The notes under the pieces were generated by a model. That model had not been told where the DNA came from. It did no database searches and was given only the letters and a program-made list of their open reading frames with translations. 38,019 nucleotides of DNA, taken from an uncultured virus (IMG/VR IMGVR_UViG_2061766007_000422). Its lineage: Duplodnaviria > Heunggongvirae > Uroviricota > Caudoviricetes. The DNA lies in IMG/VR virus record IMGVR_UViG_2061766007_000422; one strand, 5' to 3'. Below are positions 992 to 14,418 of this stretch, in pieces. Both the position numbers and the translations under genes were made by a program. Every line of letters starts with the position of its first letter. Positions within the stretch are counted from its first letter, which is position 1.

Positions 992-1067
992 ATGTCCTCC
1001 TGTTCAATGCGTTGGATTGCGTTGCAAGTTAGTTGCAAGTAGGTTGCAACTTAAAGTGCCTTTAAGT

Positions 1068-1216
1068 TGTCTGCGGGTGAGGATTTGCACCTCACATGAT
1101 AGCCTTTTCGCCGATGTAGGGTCGCATGACTTTCGTCCTTCTTTTCGGGTGGTAACGTTACCTCCACCCTCGTGACTATCTCCCTCTAACCCGTCTACCT
1201 ATTCCGTCACCGCATA
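1068..1216 (-). ncRNA. tRNA-like RNA with the anticodon/variable region replaced by a ~90-nt structured domain
   Basis: Leu-type D arm GACGGAATAGGTAGACG, T arm GTGAGG-TGCAAAT-CCTCAC, TGCGG/CCGCA acceptor-like stem, insert closed by GATAGTC/GGCTATC. Confidence 0.7.
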
Positions 1217-1219
1217 AAA

Positions 1220-1343
1220 TATCTAGCCGGAGTATTACTATTGCACCTGCGCGCGCCAGAGTTGCACTGGCAGCACTAGCTGACTCGAACAACACCGCAT
1301 AATACTATTCTACTCCTTTTCTGTGTTTGCACCCGTCTAGATA
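1220..1343 (-). ncRNA. structured RNA with two T-arm-like hairpins
   Basis: TATCTAG/CTAGATA and AGTATTA/TAATACT stems enclose GTTG-TTCGAGT-CAGC and GCCAG-TGCAACT-CTGGC. Confidence 0.6.
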
Positions 1344-1345
1344 AT

Positions 1346-1439
1346 TGGTTTGGAGTGCCTTTACCATCATTTTTGCAATATCTGTTTCACTACTAATGCC
1401 GTAGCACGTGATACTAACATTTGAGCTTAATGGCTCCAA
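1346..1439 (-). ncRNA. CCA-ended non-cloverleaf RNA
   Basis: TTGGAG/CTCCAA stem followed by ACCA; inner stem GCCATTA/TGATGGT; begins 1 nt after tRNA-Lys. Confidence 0.5.
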
Positions 1440-1440
1440 G

Positions 1441-1512
1441 TGCGCCTGGCGAGGATCGAACTCGCGTTCATAGATTAAAAGTCATGTGCTCTACCGACTG
1501 AGCTACGGGCAC
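1441..1512 (-). tRNA. tRNA-Lys(TTT) with an irregular anticodon stem
   Basis: D arm GCTCAGTCGGTAGAGC, loop CTTTTAA, T arm GCGAG-TTCGATC-CTCGC; stem CATGA/TC(T)ATG needs a bulge. Confidence 0.85.
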
Positions 1513-5611: not shown

Positions 5612-6466
5612 TTATATCTCCTTATCAATAAATTTCCAACCAAATCCTTTTGATGTTTTTAATATACCACGACAAACTCTACTAAGTGTAGAAACACAAC
5701 CGTTTATTTCTCTTGCCGCAGTAGACAAAGAAGGAAAGGTTTTTATTATTTCATTTGTATTTAAATCTATTTGTGCAACTGCACGAGCGGTCATATCTCT
5801 AGTTTTATTTGGAAGTTGTACTTCCCAAAAATAATCTTTGTAAAAATTATGATGTGTTGACAAACCTTCTCGAAAAGTTGCCCTACAAACTCCTAAAGAT
5901 ATCGCTGCTTGAGCCAAAGAAGAAAATTCTTCAATTGCTTCAAACGTAATTGGGTCTCTTTTTATAATTTTTTTAGCATATGGCATATATGAACTTTTTG
6001 CATTTTCTTTGCTTCGTTCTAATTTTTCTTCTGTAGTTATACCATTAGAACTTAATACTATACCAACTGCTGATGGACTACAAGAAACTATTTCACTAAT
6101 TTGCTTAATACTGAAACCTTCTTCCCATAATTCTGCAATTTTATTATGGTCATGTAAGTTATGTCCATCTCCACCCAATGTTAAATTATAACCATTATTA
6201 TAACTGTCATAATATTCTATCCAATATCTTTCTCGTTCATCTAATTGTTCAATAGGAACTAATTCAATAATTTCATAATTAAAATTTTCATTACCATATT
6301 CTCTAATTGCTTTATAAAGAGCTGAATTATTATATTTTTTCCAATTTGGGTGTAAAGCTGCACTTTTATGTGCATACCATCTAGTATAAATATCGCAACT
6401 TTTTCCTATATAAACTTGATTATTTATTTTATTAGTAATTTTATAAATTCCGCTTAAAACTTTCAT
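5612..6466 (-). CDS. GIY-YIG homing endonuclease with NUMOD1-like repeats
   Basis: GIYKITN..VYIGKS, ERERYWI, GYNLTLGG; two F.SL..AA...WE/WK repeats. Confidence 0.92.
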   Translation of the reverse strand: MKVLSGIYKITNKINNQVYIGKSCDIYTRWYAHKSAALHPNWKKYNNSALYKAIREYGNENFNYEIIELVPIEQLDERERYWIEYYDSYNNGYNLTLGGDGHNLHDHNKIAELWEEGFSIKQISEIVSCSPSAVGIVLSSNGITTEEKLERSKENAKSSYMPYAKKIIKRDPITFEAIEEFSSLAQAAISLGVCRATFREGLSTHHNFYKDYFWEVQLPNKTRDMTARAVAQIDLNTNEIIKTFPSLSTAAREINGCVSTLSRVCRGILKTSKGFGWKFIDKEI

Positions 6467-6472
6467 TATTAT

Positions 6473-6555
6473 CAACCCCTACTTGATAATAATATAAGGC
6501 TGAATAATAGGGGTATTCTTATCTCATAAAAGAGCGACCTTTATGCTACCCTTAT
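6473..6555 (-). promoter_or_regulatory. structured leader with an anti-SD loop upstream of GIY-YIG gene
   Basis: GAATA-CCCCTAT-TATTC hairpin, loop complementary to the RBS TAGGGG; homologous to 2655-2730. Confidence 0.6.
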
Positions 6556-6570
6556 ATTATTTAAATATAA

Positions 6571-6652
6571 ATTAGACCTATTTTGACCTGCTCTACCAGC
6601 TGAGCTACTTGTGCAAGCACAAGGTTGGGTTCGAACCGGTAGATAAGCTAAT
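6571..6652 (-). ncRNA. circularly permuted tRNA module, YrlA-type Y RNA candidate
   Basis: 5'->3' order: GGTTCGAACC T loop, loop-closed acceptor stem CTTGTG-CTTG-CACAAG, D arm TAGCTCAGCTGGTAGAGC; closed by ATTAGCTTAT/ATAGGTCTAAT. Confidence 0.75.
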
Positions 6653-6787
6653 AGTGATTTTTCGCACTTCCGCGGATTTCCATGCCTGGTTATACCACCA
6701 ACCCTTCCGCTCTATGTCGGTTGTGTCCTGATACCGAAAAACATCCAGTAGACTTTATTTAATGTTGTTGCTACTGTCCTCAACAAG

Positions 6788-6859
6788 CGACTCTACCGTG
6801 AATTGAACACGGACCTCGTGATAGACAGTCACGCATCATAGCCATTAGACCATAGAGCC
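6788..6859 (-). tRNA. tRNA-Asp(GTC)
   Basis: GGCTCTA/TAGAGTC acceptor, CGTGA-CTGTCTA-TCACG, CCGTG-TTCAATT-CACGG. Confidence 0.93.
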
Positions 6860-6926
6860 AAATATTAGCTTTAAGGTCAGCTAACCGCGCATGCTCGTTT
6901 TACTTCCACATTTGCTTTCAGAAGAA

Positions 6927-6999
6927 CGCCCAGTGAGAATTACGATATCCCGACACCAACGTTAACAGCGTTGCGCTCTACCAACTGAGCTAACTGGGC
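6927..6999 (-). tRNA. tRNA-Asn(GTT) with atypical T arm
   Basis: GCCCAGT/ACTGGGC, canonical D arm, CAACG-CTGTTAA-CGTTG; T loop ATCGTAA. Confidence 0.88.
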
Positions 7000-7004
7000 A
7001 AAAA

Positions 7005-7068
7005 GTGGGCTGATTTAAAAGTTTATAGCATACACGCATCTTCTAAATCTTTTCGCTGCCGTGCCCAC
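7005..7068 (-). ncRNA. stem-GCAGCGA short RNA
   Basis: GTGGGC/GCCCAC stem, GCAGCGA, internal TGCTAT as in 127-202 and 230-286. Confidence 0.45.
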
Positions 7069-7165
7069 AACGGCCGATTTCGTTCGCGGATTATCTCGCG
7101 GGACGCCCCAAGCGTAGTCTTTTCATACTCGCTCGCGCTAGCAATTGTAATGGACGTTGCCAACA

Positions 7166-7238
7166 TAACTCCGACGGGGTATGATCCCGTGCTTGTGGCT
7201 TGAAAGGCCACCGTGTTAGCCTACTGCACTACGGAGTC
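7166..7238 (-). tRNA. tRNA-Glu(TTC) with atypical T loop
   Basis: GACTCCG/CGGAGTT, GTGGC-CTTTCAA-GCCAC, ACGGG-ATCATAC-CCCGT. Confidence 0.9.
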
Positions 7239-7242
7239 AAAA

Positions 7243-7740
7243 CGCGGTTTGATAACGCGGCCGCAACCGCGAATGCTTACCCGCTTGTCTTTTTATTCAT
7301 GTGAGCAACTAAACCGCAAGACCGGTGTCACCGGTGGATTAGCAATAATCGTGCTTTCCGCTCACTAAATTCTAACCGTGGAAACAACTCATTTCCACTT
7401 TACCGCTGATTAGAAGATACATTATTTTGCTCTTCTTTTATTACGCGCCGAGCAATCTGGATATAGTATCATAAATCCATTCAGTTTGCGCTTGTCGTAA
7501 CCCCGTGTTTTACTTGCTTTCTGCACTCGACACTGGCCAGCAACTTGGCTGGACTTCAAACTCCATTTAACCCATTCTTGCCTGTATCAAAAGATACCTT
7601 CTCGCCTGCAATTCAAACTGCCAAGAGGCTAGTTGGGCACCGCCACTATGATTTCTTATAGCCAATAAATAGCTTAATATACTATTGCGAACTTGCGGTA
7701 TATTAGCGCGACACCTTTTTATACTGGGTCTGTATCCAGT
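7243..7740 (-). ncRNA. large structured ncRNA candidate (ROOL/GOLLD-like context)
   Basis: ~500 nt between two tRNA genes, no credible ORF, many hairpins (GTGGAAAT/GTTTCCAC, ACCGG/CCGGT, CCAGC/GCTGG, CGCGGTT/AACCGCG). Confidence 0.6.
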
Positions 7741-7742
7741 AA

Positions 7743-7812
7743 ACGCGGGAGTGAGTAATGCTCTCACAAAGTCGTGCTTATGAGACACGATTGAAGACTT
7801 CTTCTTCCCGCC
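7743..7812 (-). tRNA. atypical tRNA-Met(CAT)-like gene
   Basis: GCGGGA/TCCCGC acceptor, TCGTGT-CTCATAA-GCACGA anticodon arm, GTGAG-AGCATTA-CTCAC T arm, shrunken D arm. Confidence 0.65.
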
Positions 7813-7920
7813 GTGCACCCGTCTTTGGACTATTTTTACTTGGTAGAGTTCGGTACTAGCCAATCGCCCGTAGCAGTTCATGACGCTGCCTAACAATGCG
7901 TGGCCTGCGTCCCACGCTCG

Positions 7921-7994
7921 TGCTCATTAGAGGAGTTGAACCTCTAAAATCTTGATTTTGAATCAAGCACGTTTGCCAATTACGTCAAATGAGC
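7921..7994 (-). tRNA. tRNA-Leu(CAA), short variable loop
   Basis: GCTCATT/AATGAGC, CTTGA-TTCAAAA-TCAAG, AGAGG-TTCAACT-CCTCT. Confidence 0.9.
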
Positions 7995-8009
7995 TCGTTT
8001 TCTAAAATA

Positions 8010-8038
8010 ATTATAACATAAATTTAGAGAAAAGTCAA
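8010..8038 (-). promoter_or_regulatory. sigma-A-type promoter heading the tRNA/ncRNA transcript
   Basis: TTGACT-N17-TATAAT with TG, 15 nt upstream of tRNA-Leu(CAA). Confidence 0.85.
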
Positions 8039-8042
8039 ATAA

Positions 8043-8162
8043 TTAGTTCCATTCTTTACAAGTTTCGTTTTCTTCTACAACTTTTCCCTCTTGTTCCATA
8101 CAATGAAGATTACCTTCATCATCTACAAACGAATTAGAGCAATTAAAGCAATCTTTTTTCAT
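8043..8162 (-). CDS. 39-aa four-Cys mini-protein (not in ORF track)
   Basis: MKKDCFNCSNSFVDDEGNLHCMEQEGKVVEENETCKEWN; GAGGG RBS and own promoter. Confidence 0.7.
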   Translation of the reverse strand: MKKDCFNCSNSFVDDEGNLHCMEQEGKVVEENETCKEWN

Positions 8163-8187
8163 TTTCTTTCCCTCACTTTCTATAATA

Positions 8188-8216
8188 ATTATATCATAAA
8201 TTTGAAAGAAAGTCAA
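8188..8216 (-). promoter_or_regulatory. sigma-A-type promoter
   Basis: TTGACT-N17-TATAAT with TG. Confidence 0.85.
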
Positions 8217-8218
8217 AT

Positions 8219-8276
8219 AAAAAATCCCGCAAACTTTTTATTTATTTAGCTATAAACAACCAATTTGCGGGATTTG
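8219..8276 (-). terminator. long-loop inverted repeat, probable terminator
   Basis: AAATCCCGCAAA/TTTGCGGGATTT followed by a T-run. Confidence 0.6.
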
Positions 8277-8282
8277 CCAAAA

Positions 8283-8346
8283 TGGTTCGCAACGCCACTT
8301 CAGCGCGCTCGTCTCGTGAGCTACACGACCAAGATAACTTGCGTGA
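8283..8346 (-). ncRNA. CCA-ended non-cloverleaf RNA
   Basis: CGCAA/TTGCG stem followed by AACCA; internal TCGTG-TAGCT-CACGA hairpin. Confidence 0.4.
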
Positions 8347-8546
8347 TGGCGGACGCCTATGTTCTTCGTGACCCCGAACATAGAAATGGGATAGACATCT
8401 CATGGATATGTCCGGACATACCTTACAAGTGTGAGATAGCACTTGGCATTCCTATCGTATTTAAAAAAAGAACCGCCTATAGTATTTCTTTTCCTAGCAA
8501 ACGGCAAATCTTTTTTGTGCGCCGGTAAGACTTGCAGAAACGGTGC

Positions 8547-8600
8547 GGAGGGACGCTGGATTTGCACCGGCCGACTCTATAAGTTGCTCCTTGCTCCCCC
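8547..8600 (-). ncRNA. miniature tRNA-like element (acceptor + T arm only)
   Basis: GGGGGA/TCCCTC stem, GCCGG-TGCAAAT-CCAGC T-arm-like hairpin, ~23-nt linker in place of D and anticodon arms. Confidence 0.5.
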
Positions 8601-8604
8601 ATAA

Positions 8605-8621
8605 AGGCGGCTAAGCCGCCT
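8605..8621 (-). terminator. GC-rich hairpin after 113-aa gene
   Basis: AGGCGGC-TTA-GCCGCCT followed by a short T tail. Confidence 0.5.
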
Positions 8622-8626
8622 CGGTT

Positions 8627-8968
8627 TTAGAACCAAAACTTATCAAACAAATCAAAAAGAGTTGGAATATCATCAAAATTTTTGGAGGTGTAATGATATG
8701 AGCCATAACGATTTACAAACGCTTCAATCTTTTCTTTATAAGCTTTCTGCGCTTTAATCATTTCCTGTCTAGCATTTTCAATTTCACTTGCCATCGCTTT
8801 GCGCTCTGCGACTTCTTTTTCTTTCTTTTCTTTCAGTTCCGCGGCTTTACGCTCTGCGAGAATCTTTTCACGATTTTCCTGTTCTTTAGCTTCAAATTCG
8901 GCTTTTTCGGCTTCATCTACTGAATTATAATACTTATTAGTGCGATCGCTATAAACTTTAATTGCCAT
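8627..8968 (-). CDS. coiled-coil hypothetical protein
   Basis: E/K/A-rich helical sequence, AAGGAG RBS. Confidence 0.8.
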   Translation of the reverse strand: MAIKVYSDRTNKYYNSVDEAEKAEFEAKEQENREKILAERKAAELKEKKEKEVAERKAMASEIENARQEMIKAQKAYKEKIEAFVNRYGSYHYTSKNFDDIPTLFDLFDKFWF

Positions 8969-8989: not shown

Positions 8990-9640
8990 TTATTTATATT
9001 TCCATATATAACCACCAGCAGTCTTTAATTTTCCTTGGCAAGCTCGTGCTAGATTGCTGGTCGGGATAGATGTTTGACGAGAAGCTTCACTTATAGATAC
9101 ATATTCTTGTATTAACTCTTCTTGTAAATTATATTGTAATATTGGTCGAGCTTTATATTGAGCCCCTCTACGACGTCTTTCGTTGGGAGAAATATTTAAT
9201 TCATCTAAAATATTAGTTAAAGTTTGATGTGTACAATGCGTTATCTCTTTAATTTCTGTATGAGATTTACCTTCATTCCATAATGATAAGATTAAATCTC
9301 TATCATATCTTTTTTTAAAAACATTGGTTTCGCCGCCTGCTGTCATATTATACCCATTACAATTAGGTAATTGAATAAAAGTATGATAATAAGAAATCCA
9401 ATATTTTTCTCTTTCATTTAGTTTTTCTTCTGAACAATATTCTAATATATCAAAAGAAAAATTTTCTATTCCATATGTTCTAATTGCAGTATAAATTAAA
9501 CTATTATACATATCATTATTACGATTAAAAGGCTGGGTACGATGAGCCCGTAATCTTACTTTAAGATTTTTAGACTTACCAATATAGCTTTTTCCATTAC
9601 AATTATTTGTAATTTTATAAATACCAGAATTGTTTTCCAT
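8990..9640 (-). CDS. GIY-YIG homing endonuclease with NUMOD1-like C-terminus
   Basis: GIYKITN..SYIGKS, EREKYWI, GYNMTAGG, ACQGKLKTAGGYIWKY. Confidence 0.92.
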   Translation of the reverse strand: MENNSGIYKITNNCNGKSYIGKSKNLKVRLRAHRTQPFNRNNDMYNSLIYTAIRTYGIENFSFDILEYCSEEKLNEREKYWISYYHTFIQLPNCNGYNMTAGGETNVFKKRYDRDLILSLWNEGKSHTEIKEITHCTHQTLTNILDELNISPNERRRRGAQYKARPILQYNLQEELIQEYVSISEASRQTSIPTSNLARACQGKLKTAGGYIWKYK

Positions 9641-9742
9641 GATTTTTTTTAGCCTCTCATAAACATATACTCCTTTTATATTTGCGATTCCTTACTCGCA
9701 TTATATTTGTTGATTGGGTTCCTTTCCCCTTTCAACATAATA

Positions 9743-13491: not shown

Positions 13492-14418
13492 CTTAATCCC
13501 GCTACTTTCGTAGGGGCCAGACTATCTCTTCATTTATTCTATTTTCAAGGTCTTCATAATAAGCAATTTGAAGTAATTTGTATCCATTACGTTTACAATA
13601 ATCTTCTTTAATTAAATCGTGTGCGACGGTTTTTAAAAAATTATCTTCACCGCCGAAATAATCTACAGATTTAAAATGTTGACCGCCTTGTAATTCTACA
13701 AGTAGATTTAATTCAGGAATGTAAAAATCAAATGGTAATGGACGTATATCAGCACAATCTTCAAAAATCTTTTGTGCTTCAAATGATATTTTATGCTTTA
13801 ATAATATCGCGCGTGTCTTACTTTCCATTGAAGAAATCATACAACCACAACTTTTAACACTACCACTTTTTAAGTGACGTCCATCTACAACACATTGGTT
13901 TCCACACTCACACTGACAATTATATTTTACGCCTTTTCCAATTTCTGTGGTTCTAGATAAAACTAATAATTTGCCAAATTGTTGCCCAGATAAATCATTG
14001 AATTTTCTTCTGCTACATTGGCTACAAGATTGTATCTTATCTTGCAGAATATGATTGCTTTGTGTTTTAAATTCTTGCTTACAAATAGGACAAATGCAAA
14101 TCCATTTTTTATGCTTTCCTGCGCCCATTGAAGTCTTATCTACTTCTTTAATGTATAAGCCACCATTTAGCATTTGTCCAGTTAAATCTATATACGGTCT
14201 TCCCATTTTATTATCCCCTTAAAAATAAAATAAAGCACGGCGCTTCGTAAGTAGGAATTTCACCTACAAACTACGAGTTATCTCTAGTCGTTACACTTTC
14301 CTATTAAATAGGCTTAGCACGGTATTGGCTTGCCTCTCGGTTTAGCGTTCACCGTTAGCCGCAATTGCGACACCCTAGATTTCTAGGTTCACCGTGTTTA
14401 AAGGCGGCCATTACGTTA
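13492..14418 (-). mobile_element. group I intron (927 nt)
   Basis: P1 GGCGGT/GCCGCC with U.G at the 5' splice site, P3 CACGGTG/CGCCGTG, P7 GACTA/TAGTC, terminal G at 13492, P10 GTAATG/CATTAC. Confidence 0.92.
13502..14206 (-). CDS. intron-encoded endonuclease: Cys-rich DL.GQ repeats + PD-(D/E)xK/Vsr-like domain
   Basis: Two DL(T/S)GQ...C.C..C repeats; PFDFYIP...LVELQGGQHF...HD..K..YC...LLQI.Y. Confidence 0.8.
   Translation of the reverse strand: MGRPYIDLTGQMLNGGLYIKEVDKTSMGAGKHKKWICICPICKQEFKTQSNHILQDKIQSCSQCSRRKFNDLSGQQFGKLLVLSRTTEIGKGVKYNCQCECGNQCVVDGRHLKSGSVKSCGCMISSMESKTRAILLKHKISFEAQKIFEDCADIRPLPFDFYIPELNLLVELQGGQHFKSVDYFGGEDNFLKTVAHDLIKEDYCKRNGYKLLQIAYYEDLENRINEEIVWPLRK

Follow-up and report, generated by a model that had tools for sequence, protein, structure and literature searches.

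A gap in the tRNA gene cluster of an uncultured phage as a probable chain of small, separately folding RNA modules

Introduction

What is encoded in the gap of approximately 680 bases that separates a tRNA-Leu gene (7994-7920) from a tRNA-Glu gene (7239-7165) on the minus strand of an uncultured virus of the Caudoviricetes (IMG/VR record IMGVR_UViG_2061766007_000422)? The window analysed here is the whole stretch of 38,019 nucleotides and represents a phage. Its products include a tail protein, repeat proteins resembling tail fibres and an endolysin-like protein. An earlier note, made from the sequence alone, had proposed that positions 7243-7740 hold one ornate non-coding RNA of about 500 nt next to, or containing, an atypical tRNA-Met gene. 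Its observation was partly confirmed and its interpretation partly supported by the analysis described here. With a probability of roughly 0.6 the gap represents the untranslated spacer of a minus-strand phage tRNA operon, carrying a chain of separately folding RNA modules that are released in the course of tRNA processing.

Modules C, D and E of this chain (and module I, on the basis of four relatives) are members of RNA families that are absent from Rfam 15. In uncultured phages of gut and rumen these families are almost confined to tRNA clusters, where they invariably share the strand of the tRNAs. From its upstream to its downstream end the gap comprises a 100-nt spacer, a tRNA-derived cloverleaf, modules C and D, a lineage-specific insert and modules E, F, H and I, followed by tRNA-Glu. 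The features are as follows; loci and contigs of related phages are referred to by L numbers.

7920..7994, minus strand: tRNA-Leu (CAA), upstream boundary (ARAGORN; Rfam tRNA 65.8 bits)
7820..7919, minus strand: G+C-rich spacer, structure and conservation without support (fold z -0.04; no blastn match in the fetched loci)
7744..7812, minus strand: tRNA(CAU)-derived cloverleaf (minimum-energy and centroid folds; z -2.25)
7675..7740, minus strand: module C, hairpin and H-type pseudoknot (88.7 bits with covariance model R1 at 7747-7669)
7645..7674, minus strand: lineage-specific linker with a small hairpin (alignment A2)
7544..7644, minus strand: module D, nested helices P0 and P1, interior hairpin and conserved 3' strand
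7495..7543, minus strand: insert of two hairpins between D and E, common only to the window, L008 and L124
7427..7491, minus strand: module E, H-type pseudoknot (alignment A5)
7372..7413, minus strand: module F, outer stem CUAAUC/GGUUAG and hairpin GUGGAAA-UGAGUUG-UUUCCAC
7301..7365, minus strand: module H, putative three-way junction with GUGAGC/GCUCAC as closing stem (from the minimum-energy fold of 7375-7240; z -1.61)
7244..7271, minus strand: module I, pseudoknot-like leader CGCGG-UUGCGG-CCGCG-UUAUCAAACCGC, ending 4-5 nt before tRNA-Glu
7165..7239, minus strand: tRNA-Glu (UUC), downstream boundary (ARAGORN; Rfam 57.4 bits)

Results and Discussion

Non-coding character of the gap and search for known RNA classes

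The sole long open reading frame in the gap (7567-7896, 109 aa, TTG start) has no PHROG match. A frame that stays open throughout the homologous segments was found in at best 12 of 33 module C sequences and 7 of 24 module D sequences; thus no frame is conserved, and no protein-coding signature was seen in any frame across these two families. The stretch is therefore non-coding, as had been claimed.

According to a search with the models of Rfam 15 the gap contains no known RNA, neither at the gathering score in the window nor at E<=10 in 6500-8700 or in 7240-7920. At the sensitivity of the models this excludes ROOL, GOLLD, OLE, RNase P RNA, tmRNA, group I introns and the catalogued ribozymes and riboswitches. 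The models of the first five all gave no match at E<=10, in line with the view of the earlier note that the class could be new. ARAGORN predicted neither a tRNA between 7240 and 7919 nor a tmRNA, and in the loci of 14 relatives no Rfam match overlaps modules C, D or E at E<=1. Inspection of C, D and E by eye for folds of the preQ1-I, twister, HDV-like, group I intron, tmRNA and RNase P RNA types gave only short, putative resemblances; these candidates were rejected, and no Rfam model matches.

Ten loci of uncultured phages were reached via neighbouring proteins, and a blastn search of the gap against them revealed that it is conserved blockwise, not as a whole, with the blocks turning up in other company. 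Among cultured phages (50,697 phage records) neither a 1-kb query nor module C alone gave a blastn match. In the literature the motif strings retrieved only unrelated primers, and topic searches gave no description of these families.

The description of the stretch as hairpin-rich needs to be qualified. Its folding energy alone does not exceed chance (whole-gap z of -1.48 on the minus and -2.96 on the plus strand, 20 shuffles each) and is unremarkable for the whole gap. The case for structure is based on covariation in relatives, which was detected in the homologs of modules C, D and E.

Module C, a covarying pseudoknot of phage tRNA clusters

Module C starts with a hairpin of variable stem and conserved loop AUACA(U)GAC (hairpin 1), followed by the linker UAUAAAAAGGUGNCGC and a pseudoknot. 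The latter comprises a 3-bp stem 1 (GCX/YGC), an 8-bp stem 2, a first loop of 1 nt and a fixed 12-nt loop AAGUUCGCAAUA. A pattern search matched at least 120 viral contigs; among the matches listed, to which the copy counts of module C refer, 128 copies with full flanks were reduced to 33 at <90% identity. Of these, 25 were aligned over 89 columns (alignment A3) and used for building the 80-position covariance model R1, which finds a single copy of module C in the window.

In A3, 92.7% of the cells in paired positions are indeed paired compared with 73.1% in shuffles, and 13 of the 16 pairs are changed on both sides, among them all eight pairs of stem 2. Slid controls never exceeded 40% paired. 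The X:Y pair of stem 1 is G:C in 16, C:G in eight and U:A in one sequence, and 31 columns are invariant. The G-U pairs identify the minus strand of the window as the transcribed one. Taking together that the stems covary, that the loops are fixed and that the G-U pairs fix the strand, module C is under selection as an RNA, and it contains an H-type pseudoknot supported by covariation. The loop of hairpin 1 may furthermore pair with a GGUG tail in two registers, with the variants ACC/GGU, UCC/GGA and, in L161, GCAUC/GAUGC.

In place of the linker at 7674-7645 other relatives bear a second, shorter and divergent copy of module C (C'), scoring 28-31 bits with R1 in L008, L009, L132 and L161. The module C pattern was also detected in seven contigs of a genome collection, six from gut or rumen Bacillota assemblies and one assigned to Helicobacter pylori, the latter of which may be a contaminant. 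R1 was also applied to 151 genomes sampled within the order to which one carrier belongs and matched the carrier alone; the family thus seems to be one of phages and not of their hosts.

A different setting was observed in approximately 40 near-identical contigs of gut phages (L016 1053-1320), where tRNA-Thr is followed by a pseudoknot-like hairpin pair, module C and an inverted repeat (AGAGAG/CUCUCU). Behind it lie a T-run, a ribosome-binding site and a gene with metallophosphoesterase-like motifs recognised by eye. The terminator scan gave no call at the inverted repeat in L016. Module C may in this locus represent a stand-alone small-RNA gene or a regulatory leader.

Modules D, E, F and I

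The 17-nt core of module D matched 31 viral stretches, of which four (L134, L137, L139 and L142) were set aside by eye as they have neither the conserved 3' continuation nor the GGUGC start. The module is composed of P0 (NNNGG/CCNNN), the dinucleotide UG, P1 (CCCA/UGGG), a variable interior and an invariant 3' strand of 26 nt, GGUUAAAUGGAGUUUGANGAACAGCC (7572-7547). In the alignment of 24 sequences (A4) P1 is 89.6% paired, and two of its four pairs are changed on both sides, giving the compensatory versions CCAC/GUGG and CCUA/UAGG. P0 is 68.3% paired, its three outer pairs forming in 10-13 of the 24 sequences each; in stand-alone copies such as those of L152, L143, L151, L153, L155 and L160 it reaches 4-5 bp.

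Both hairpin strings quoted in the earlier note are present on the minus strand (GCAG-TTTGAA-TTGC at 7621-7608 and GGAG-TTTGAA-GTCC at 7564-7551), and the second is not general as a hairpin. The first string forms the interior hairpin of module D, and a UUUGAA-type loop is kept on varying stems in 15 of the 24 members. The second occurs as a hairpin only in the window and in L008: its letters GGAGUUUGA are invariant, yet its 3' side reads GAAC, which is unable to pair, in 22 of 24 members. UUUGAAU deviates in one letter from the canonical tRNA T loop, UUCGAAU, and may serve as a lead only. The double T-loop motif of elbow docking was considered for module D and rejected, because its core AG..A / UG..A (PMC3664808) is matched by neither UUAAA nor UUUGA, which leaves a likeness to T loops of the tRNA type.

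Module E is a second H-type pseudoknot, with stem 1 GCGC/GCGC, stem 2 UUGCUC/GAGCAA, a variable hairpin in loop 1 and an A-rich loop 3. All ten pairs are 100% paired in the 15 sequences of A5, and both helices are supported by covariation. Stem 1 is changed to ACGC/GCGU in L133 and L138 (GC to AU, two sequences) and stem 2 to UUACUC/GAGUAA in L131, L149 and L158 (GC to AU in three sequences, plus one GU). With one compensatory pair per helix, few independent events stand behind this support. Module F follows E in five relatives (L008, L001, L013, L024 and L040), and both its stems show pairs changed on both sides (RNAalifold, A2).

Module I recurs in L001, L006, L008 and L009 immediately before tRNA-Thr or tRNA-Asn, where its stem reads CUCAG/CUGAG, two pairs being changed on both sides (alignment A7). 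Its loop and tail are invariant, and the loop GCGG could pair with the tail CCGC to form a putative pseudoknot. Further short pieces join the same shuffling in L013 (1767-1800), L092, L122 and upstream of module I in L001, L006, L008 and L009: CCGUCACACAGUGUAGCC recurs ahead of module C or module I, GCAGGGGCAAACUGCUGC...GGCAGAGUA ahead of C or D, and GGGAUGGAAGGAAACGAG...GUCCUUACC after E.

Cloverleaf, upstream spacer and module H

The D-arm-reduced, tRNA-Met-like element reported at the edge of the structured stretch is real (7812-7744), and a cloverleaf is its minimum-energy fold, equalled by four of 200 shuffles. It possesses an acceptor stem of 6 bp, a D arm of 4 bp with the 4-nt loop AAGU, an anticodon arm with the 7-nt loop CUCAUAA and a T arm of 5 bp with the loop AGCAUUA. 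ARAGORN did not call it as a tRNA, and the Rfam tRNA model (RF00005, 29 bits needed) found nothing at E<=10. The elbow of canonical tRNAs is formed by GG in the D loop and UUCRANY in the T loop. Both loops of the cloverleaf depart from these elements, and judging from its letters it is unable to form a normal elbow.

The anticodon stem-loop (19 nt) is identical to that of the tRNA-Met(CAT) genes called by ARAGORN in L169 and L170, all other arms of which differ entirely. A search with this string matched only these two ordinary tRNA-Met genes; for the cloverleaf in its entirety no homolog was detected. The 3' strand of the cloverleaf ends 3 nt before module C, a place occupied by a tRNA in L049 and L030. 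Because all four stems are intact, the anticodon stem-loop is identical and a tRNA stands at the same place in these two relatives, we regard the cloverleaf as a tRNA-derived element kept in shape, represented by a single instance. It might decode, mark a site of processing or serve as a decoy.

The further 100 nt of structured sequence that had been postulated upstream of the cloverleaf (7919-7820) did not stand up to analysis, having a z of -0.04 and a homolog in none of the fetched loci. Module H found a single blastn match, of 70% identity, after a tRNA in L001, and is weak as a structured module.

Probable independence of the modules and linkage to tRNA genes

The relatives do not support the view of 7243-7740 as one RNA, since the modules stand alone, are reordered or occur in other company. 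In L005 module C (block 7743-7665) has no other module beside it, its neighbours being tRNA-Trp and tRNA-Glu. A stand-alone copy of module D is flanked by two tRNAs in L152, and in L143, L155, L156 and L160 a tRNA follows D directly. In L006 module E (block 7491-7417) directly follows tRNA-Met and is located upstream of D (block 7588-7545), which is the reverse of the order in the window. The insert at 7543-7495 is missing from L001, L040 and L013, and its place is taken in L024 (1505-1610) by a DUF3800-I RNA (RF02969; 57.3 bits vs a gathering score of 44.2). The same RNA was matched between D and E in L061, while the window itself has no match.

RNAalifold, applied to seven composites, proposed long-range pairs between C and E; none of them is changed on both sides, and the letters involved are just as invariant in stand-alone copies of C. 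Autonomy of the modules is the preferred reading on this evidence: modules occurring alone, E preceding D in L006, different RNAs inserted between them and the lack of any long-range pair changed on both sides. The recurrent ensemble is confined to approximately 7740-7372 (C, D, E and F) and was found in nine contigs.

Among the 72 distinct copies of module C, 65 have a tRNA on the same strand in the fetched flank and none has one on the opposite strand. A tRNA starts within 12 nt downstream in 13 copies, and a tRNA ends 13-100 nt upstream in 32, mostly from one set of gut phages. In 11 distinct loci the distance from C to the tRNA is 5-6 nt (script's measure), with many tRNA identities downstream. 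Of 26 distinct D copies 23 are accompanied by a same-strand tRNA, which follows within 12 nt in five cases. Same-strand tRNAs were also present in all seven genome-collection loci. These results support the earlier proposal of untranslated structured RNA inside a phage tRNA cluster.

Transcription context

All eight tRNA genes detected in the window (ARAGORN, Rfam) are encoded on the minus strand. The following promoter-like site precedes the gap:

8010..8038, minus strand: promoter-like site TTGACT-17 nt-TG-TATAAT, about 10 nt upstream of tRNA-Leu

It matches the consensus in 11 of 12 positions, with TG preceding the second hexamer, and is likely to be the start of a transcript that carries the whole stretch. 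No terminator-like site was found on the minus strand between 6300 and 8700. The promoter-like motif has a second copy at 8216-8188 (minus strand), and both copies are located inside a 45-nt repeat that has many occurrences in the loci of related phages. The G+C content is 0.43-0.47 over 6501-8000 compared with about 0.25-0.40 in most of the genome.

Five RNA-library runs from two studies (gut, bovine) contained 5-9% of the sampled words of the stretch. The contigs from these runs include record 7 of X1, a close relative covering 7483-7740 with five differences and two gaps, record 13 of X2 (7369-7565) and record 18 of X4 (7480-7641, depth 33).

Proposed origin and role of the module RNAs

RNase P cleaves tRNAs at their 5' ends, and tRNA 3' trailers are removed. 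The whole chain would be transcribed from 8038-8010 together with the tRNAs; host RNase P would then cleave at the 5' end of the tRNA that follows a module, the tRNA ahead of it would be trimmed by 3'-end processing, and stable module RNAs of 30-110 nt would be left. The compact pseudoknotted 3' ends may protect the freed modules from exonucleases and allow them to work as autonomous units. This scheme is modelled on the species I and II RNAs of phage T4, small untranslated RNAs located between phage tRNA genes and made from one precursor with the tRNAs (PMC2330249).

The most likely role of the modules, which is speculative, would be the binding of a conserved host or phage factor that handles tRNA, to which the tRNA-derived cloverleaf and the likeness of some loops to T loops might point. 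The shuffling of modules between phages might plausibly be brought about by recombination driven by the GIY-YIG endonucleases that flank them:

360-863, 1719-2657, 5612-6475 and 8990-9640, minus strand: four GIY-YIG (SegE-like, NUMOD1) homing endonuclease genes

These genes are interleaved with the tRNA and RNA islands of the window. In T4 the GIY-YIG enzyme SegB of the tRNA cluster drives the inheritance of the cluster (PMC2330249).

Alternative explanations

Several findings weigh against a chain of autonomous modules released by tRNA processing. As module C is not directly before a tRNA in 59 of its 72 copies, release by RNase P cannot be general, and the gut-phage copies lead into an inverted repeat, a T-run and a gene instead. 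Comparative support for the cloverleaf, the spacer 7919-7820 and module H is weak or none. The RNA-library contigs, whose ends, strand and processing are not readable and which may derive from library DNA, are weak support for transcription. The factor-binding role would be a speculation from sequence resemblance to T loops only. The order C-D-E is moreover kept in nine contigs (the window, L008/L159, L009/L158, L001/L150, L040/L148, L013/L131, L024/L132, L161 and L157), many D copies of such composites have a P0 of GG/CC only, and record 7 of X1 bridges C and D, which shows co-transcription at most.

The last three points would fit with C, D, E and F (approximately 7740-7372, 370 nt, longer in relatives) being one cooperative ornate RNA of rumen phages, perhaps a multimeric functional analogue of ROOL or GOLLD, which also occur near phage tRNAs (PMC5737381). 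Optional inserts at fixed points, as typical of large RNAs, and the RNAalifold pairs between GGUGNCGC of module C and module E point in the same direction. Taking into account that each module is found elsewhere alone or reordered, that the long-range pairs involve no two-sided change and letters equally fixed in stand-alone C, and that the ROOL and GOLLD models do not match, we consider a single large RNA possible but on the whole unlikely. Somewhat less probable still, and best regarded as a tentative extension, is a combinatorial kit of small pseudoknot RNAs in the tRNA operons of gut and rumen Bacillota phages in which module C would be a new functional RNA class with an active biochemical role. 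Being more than a passive spacer, it might bind a ligand or a protein as an aptamer, cleave itself or mimic the tRNA machinery, and in the last case it would manipulate host tRNA processing or tRNA-targeting defence. The pseudoknot modules ending 4-6 nt before a tRNA might, on the other hand, act only in cis as leaders of pre-tRNAs that set or delay RNase P cleavage, aid tRNA folding or shield the transcript from Rho and nucleases. The short fixed distance to position +1 of the tRNA (C in 13/72 copies, D in 5/26, I in 5/5 loci), the variety of downstream tRNAs, as expected for a general processing aid, and another conserved leader before tRNA-Asp (6916-6860) are in agreement with such a function. 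It seems nevertheless improbable, as most copies of C (59/72) and D (21/26) do not directly precede a tRNA, the gut-phage group has C after tRNA-Thr and before a gene, and 31 invariant columns out of 89 in A3 exceed the needs of a passive shield.

It appears very improbable that a small ribozyme of a new kind, trimming phage tRNA precursors by self-cleavage, is represented by module C (or I), even though the conservation of its unpaired letters is of ribozyme grade, the fold is pseudoknotted and the 11 loci with C 5-6 nt (script's measure) before a tRNA offer a suitable position. Such a ribozyme would be the 5'-side counterpart of the theta ribozymes, which cut tRNA 3' ends in gut phages (PMC10879173), and a twister-like match was obtained in the tRNA array of L049 (57.9 bits, under the gathering score of 67.2). 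The Rfam ribozyme families gave no match, most copies are located away from tRNA ends, tRNA 5' ends are already made by RNase P, and comparable conserved motifs before terminators failed self-cleavage tests (PMC5737381). Finally, it is hardly credible that the gap consists of decayed tRNA genes and filler with the invariant blocks of 14-17 nt serving as DNA recognition or immunity sites of GIY-YIG enzymes: the covarying stems, fixed loops and strand-fixing G-U pairs indicate selection on RNA, and the four intact stems of the cloverleaf are unlike random decay. The presence of four GIY-YIG genes among the tRNA islands, the recognition of a conserved tRNA element by SegB of T4 (PMC2330249) and two tRNA-derived genes with aberrant T arms in the operon would be compatible with this explanation. 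A chain of separately folding modules in an untranslated tRNA-operon spacer remains the explanation that we prefer.

Other features of the window and of related phages

The same operon contains a tRNA-Asn(GUU)-like gene (6927-6999, minus strand; Rfam 50.2 bits, no ARAGORN call) with an aberrant T arm (loop AUCGUAA, mismatched stem), to the 5' two-thirds of which tRNA-like genes in L005 and L040 show 79% identity, only this part being matched. It is separated from tRNA-Glu by a G+C-rich spacer of 165 nt (7000-7164, minus strand; fold z 0.46) that has no homolog in the fetched loci, yet RNA-library contigs of one study cover 7004-7155. Immediately before tRNA-Asp a conserved 57-nt leader (6860-6916, minus strand) consists of GCGG and the hairpin UAGC-UGACCUUAA-GCUA; its identity is 84% in L001, L008 and L009, and L160 holds a variant with an altered stem (CGC/GCG). 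The non-coding stretch of 300 nt behind tRNA-Asp includes a weak match to Y RNA-like (YrlA) RNA at 6559-6661 (minus strand; 24.5 bits vs a gathering score of 69, E 0.025), in which strings resembling the D arm and T arm of tRNAs stand in permuted order.

A second G+C-rich (0.47) non-coding island (1000-1439, minus strand) lies behind tRNA-Ser and a tRNA-Lys-like gene. Of its three GGUGCAA motifs one is part of a hairpin whose 7-nt loop reads UGCAAAU, and only 1073-1097 recurs in relatives. For 1440-1512 (minus strand) ARAGORN predicted a tRNA with the four-letter anticodon ttta (Rfam tRNA 50.8 bits), which by eye resembles tRNA-Lys(UUU), except that the 3' side of its anticodon stem has one additional, bulged U. 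An HNH-type endonuclease gene was detected at 13502-14206 and a run of N at approximately 944-953. A cow-rumen-4 RNA (RF02948) at 9683-9738 (minus strand; 49.8 bits, barely over the gathering score of 48.5) hints at a rumen or gut origin.

The tRNA arrays of related phages include a match similar to twister-P1 (L049 1796-1857; 57.9 bits, short of its gathering score of 67.2) as well as two tmRNA genes (L030 1382-1704; L005 15774-16068). CUA-anticodon tRNAs in L003, L004 and L005, called tRNA-Pyl by ARAGORN, are possible amber suppressors, and 'tRNA-???' calls with abnormal anticodon loops were obtained in L008, L009, L013, L024 and L173.

Comparison with known systems and significance

Stable RNAs of phage tRNA clusters are a known kind of RNA, among which the families of modules C, D and E appear to be undescribed in the literature searched. 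ROOL, of about 580 nt, and GOLLD, of about 800 nt, are single RNAs, unlike the stretch in the window, which is composed of modules of 30-110 nt that are also found alone and lacks any Rfam match at E<=10. They share with the window their nature as structured non-coding phage or prophage RNAs often located beside tRNAs (ROOL, RF03087; GOLLD, RF01998; PMC5737381), and ROOL was first seen in rumen data (PMC5737381; PMC12286853). The species I and II RNAs of T4 are likewise untranslated RNAs among phage tRNA genes with GIY-YIG genes close by (PMC2330249). In contrast to them the window has more modules, which are pseudoknot-rich and shuffled between phages and the processing of which is inferred; neither the stretch nor module C has any blastn likeness to them among the 50,697 phage records.

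The HDV-like theta ribozymes are comparable in being small, conserved, pseudoknotted RNAs that adjoin phage tRNA genes, where they are located at the tRNA 3' end, with the cleavage-site G directly after it, and fold into a double pseudoknot of nested type (PMC10879173). In contrast, modules C, D and I lie before tRNA 5' ends and match no ribozyme model of Rfam, the HDV family included, and C and E have a simple H-type topology. With the small RNAs described in PMC5737381 the modules share a conservation of riboswitch or ribozyme grade and no obvious cis target; further links are the DUF3800-I RNA in L024 and the terminator-like repeat after module C of the gut phages. The window itself gave no match to these families, and Pfam detected no DUF3800 protein among 43 of its open reading frames.

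The catalogue of Fremin et al. (2023) lists 8,495 unnamed csRNAs from IMG/VR viruses, i.e. from the same collection, with an average length of 67 nt and including tRNA-like structures (PMC10690425). Modules C, D or E may be among them; in the text of the supplement, to which the search was confined, the motif strings were absent and so were six of the contig names.

For genome annotation these results imply that long, seemingly empty gaps in phage tRNA arrays are to be read as mosaics of RNA genes and not as single giant RNAs. Stable RNAs in phage tRNA clusters have been known since T4 with their function unexplained, and the modules of the window provide defined handles on them. With at least 120 viral contigs module C is widespread, and its covariation is strong; D and E show conservation and structural support, the latter being weaker for D. 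All three come with exact borders and model-ready alignments. The settings observed, from single modules to chains and from a tRNA to a terminator-like repeat as the next element downstream, moreover form a natural series. Experiments appear most worthwhile on module C. If the modules engage the machinery of tRNA processing or of tRNA-targeting defence, they would represent a new layer of the conflict between phages and their hosts.

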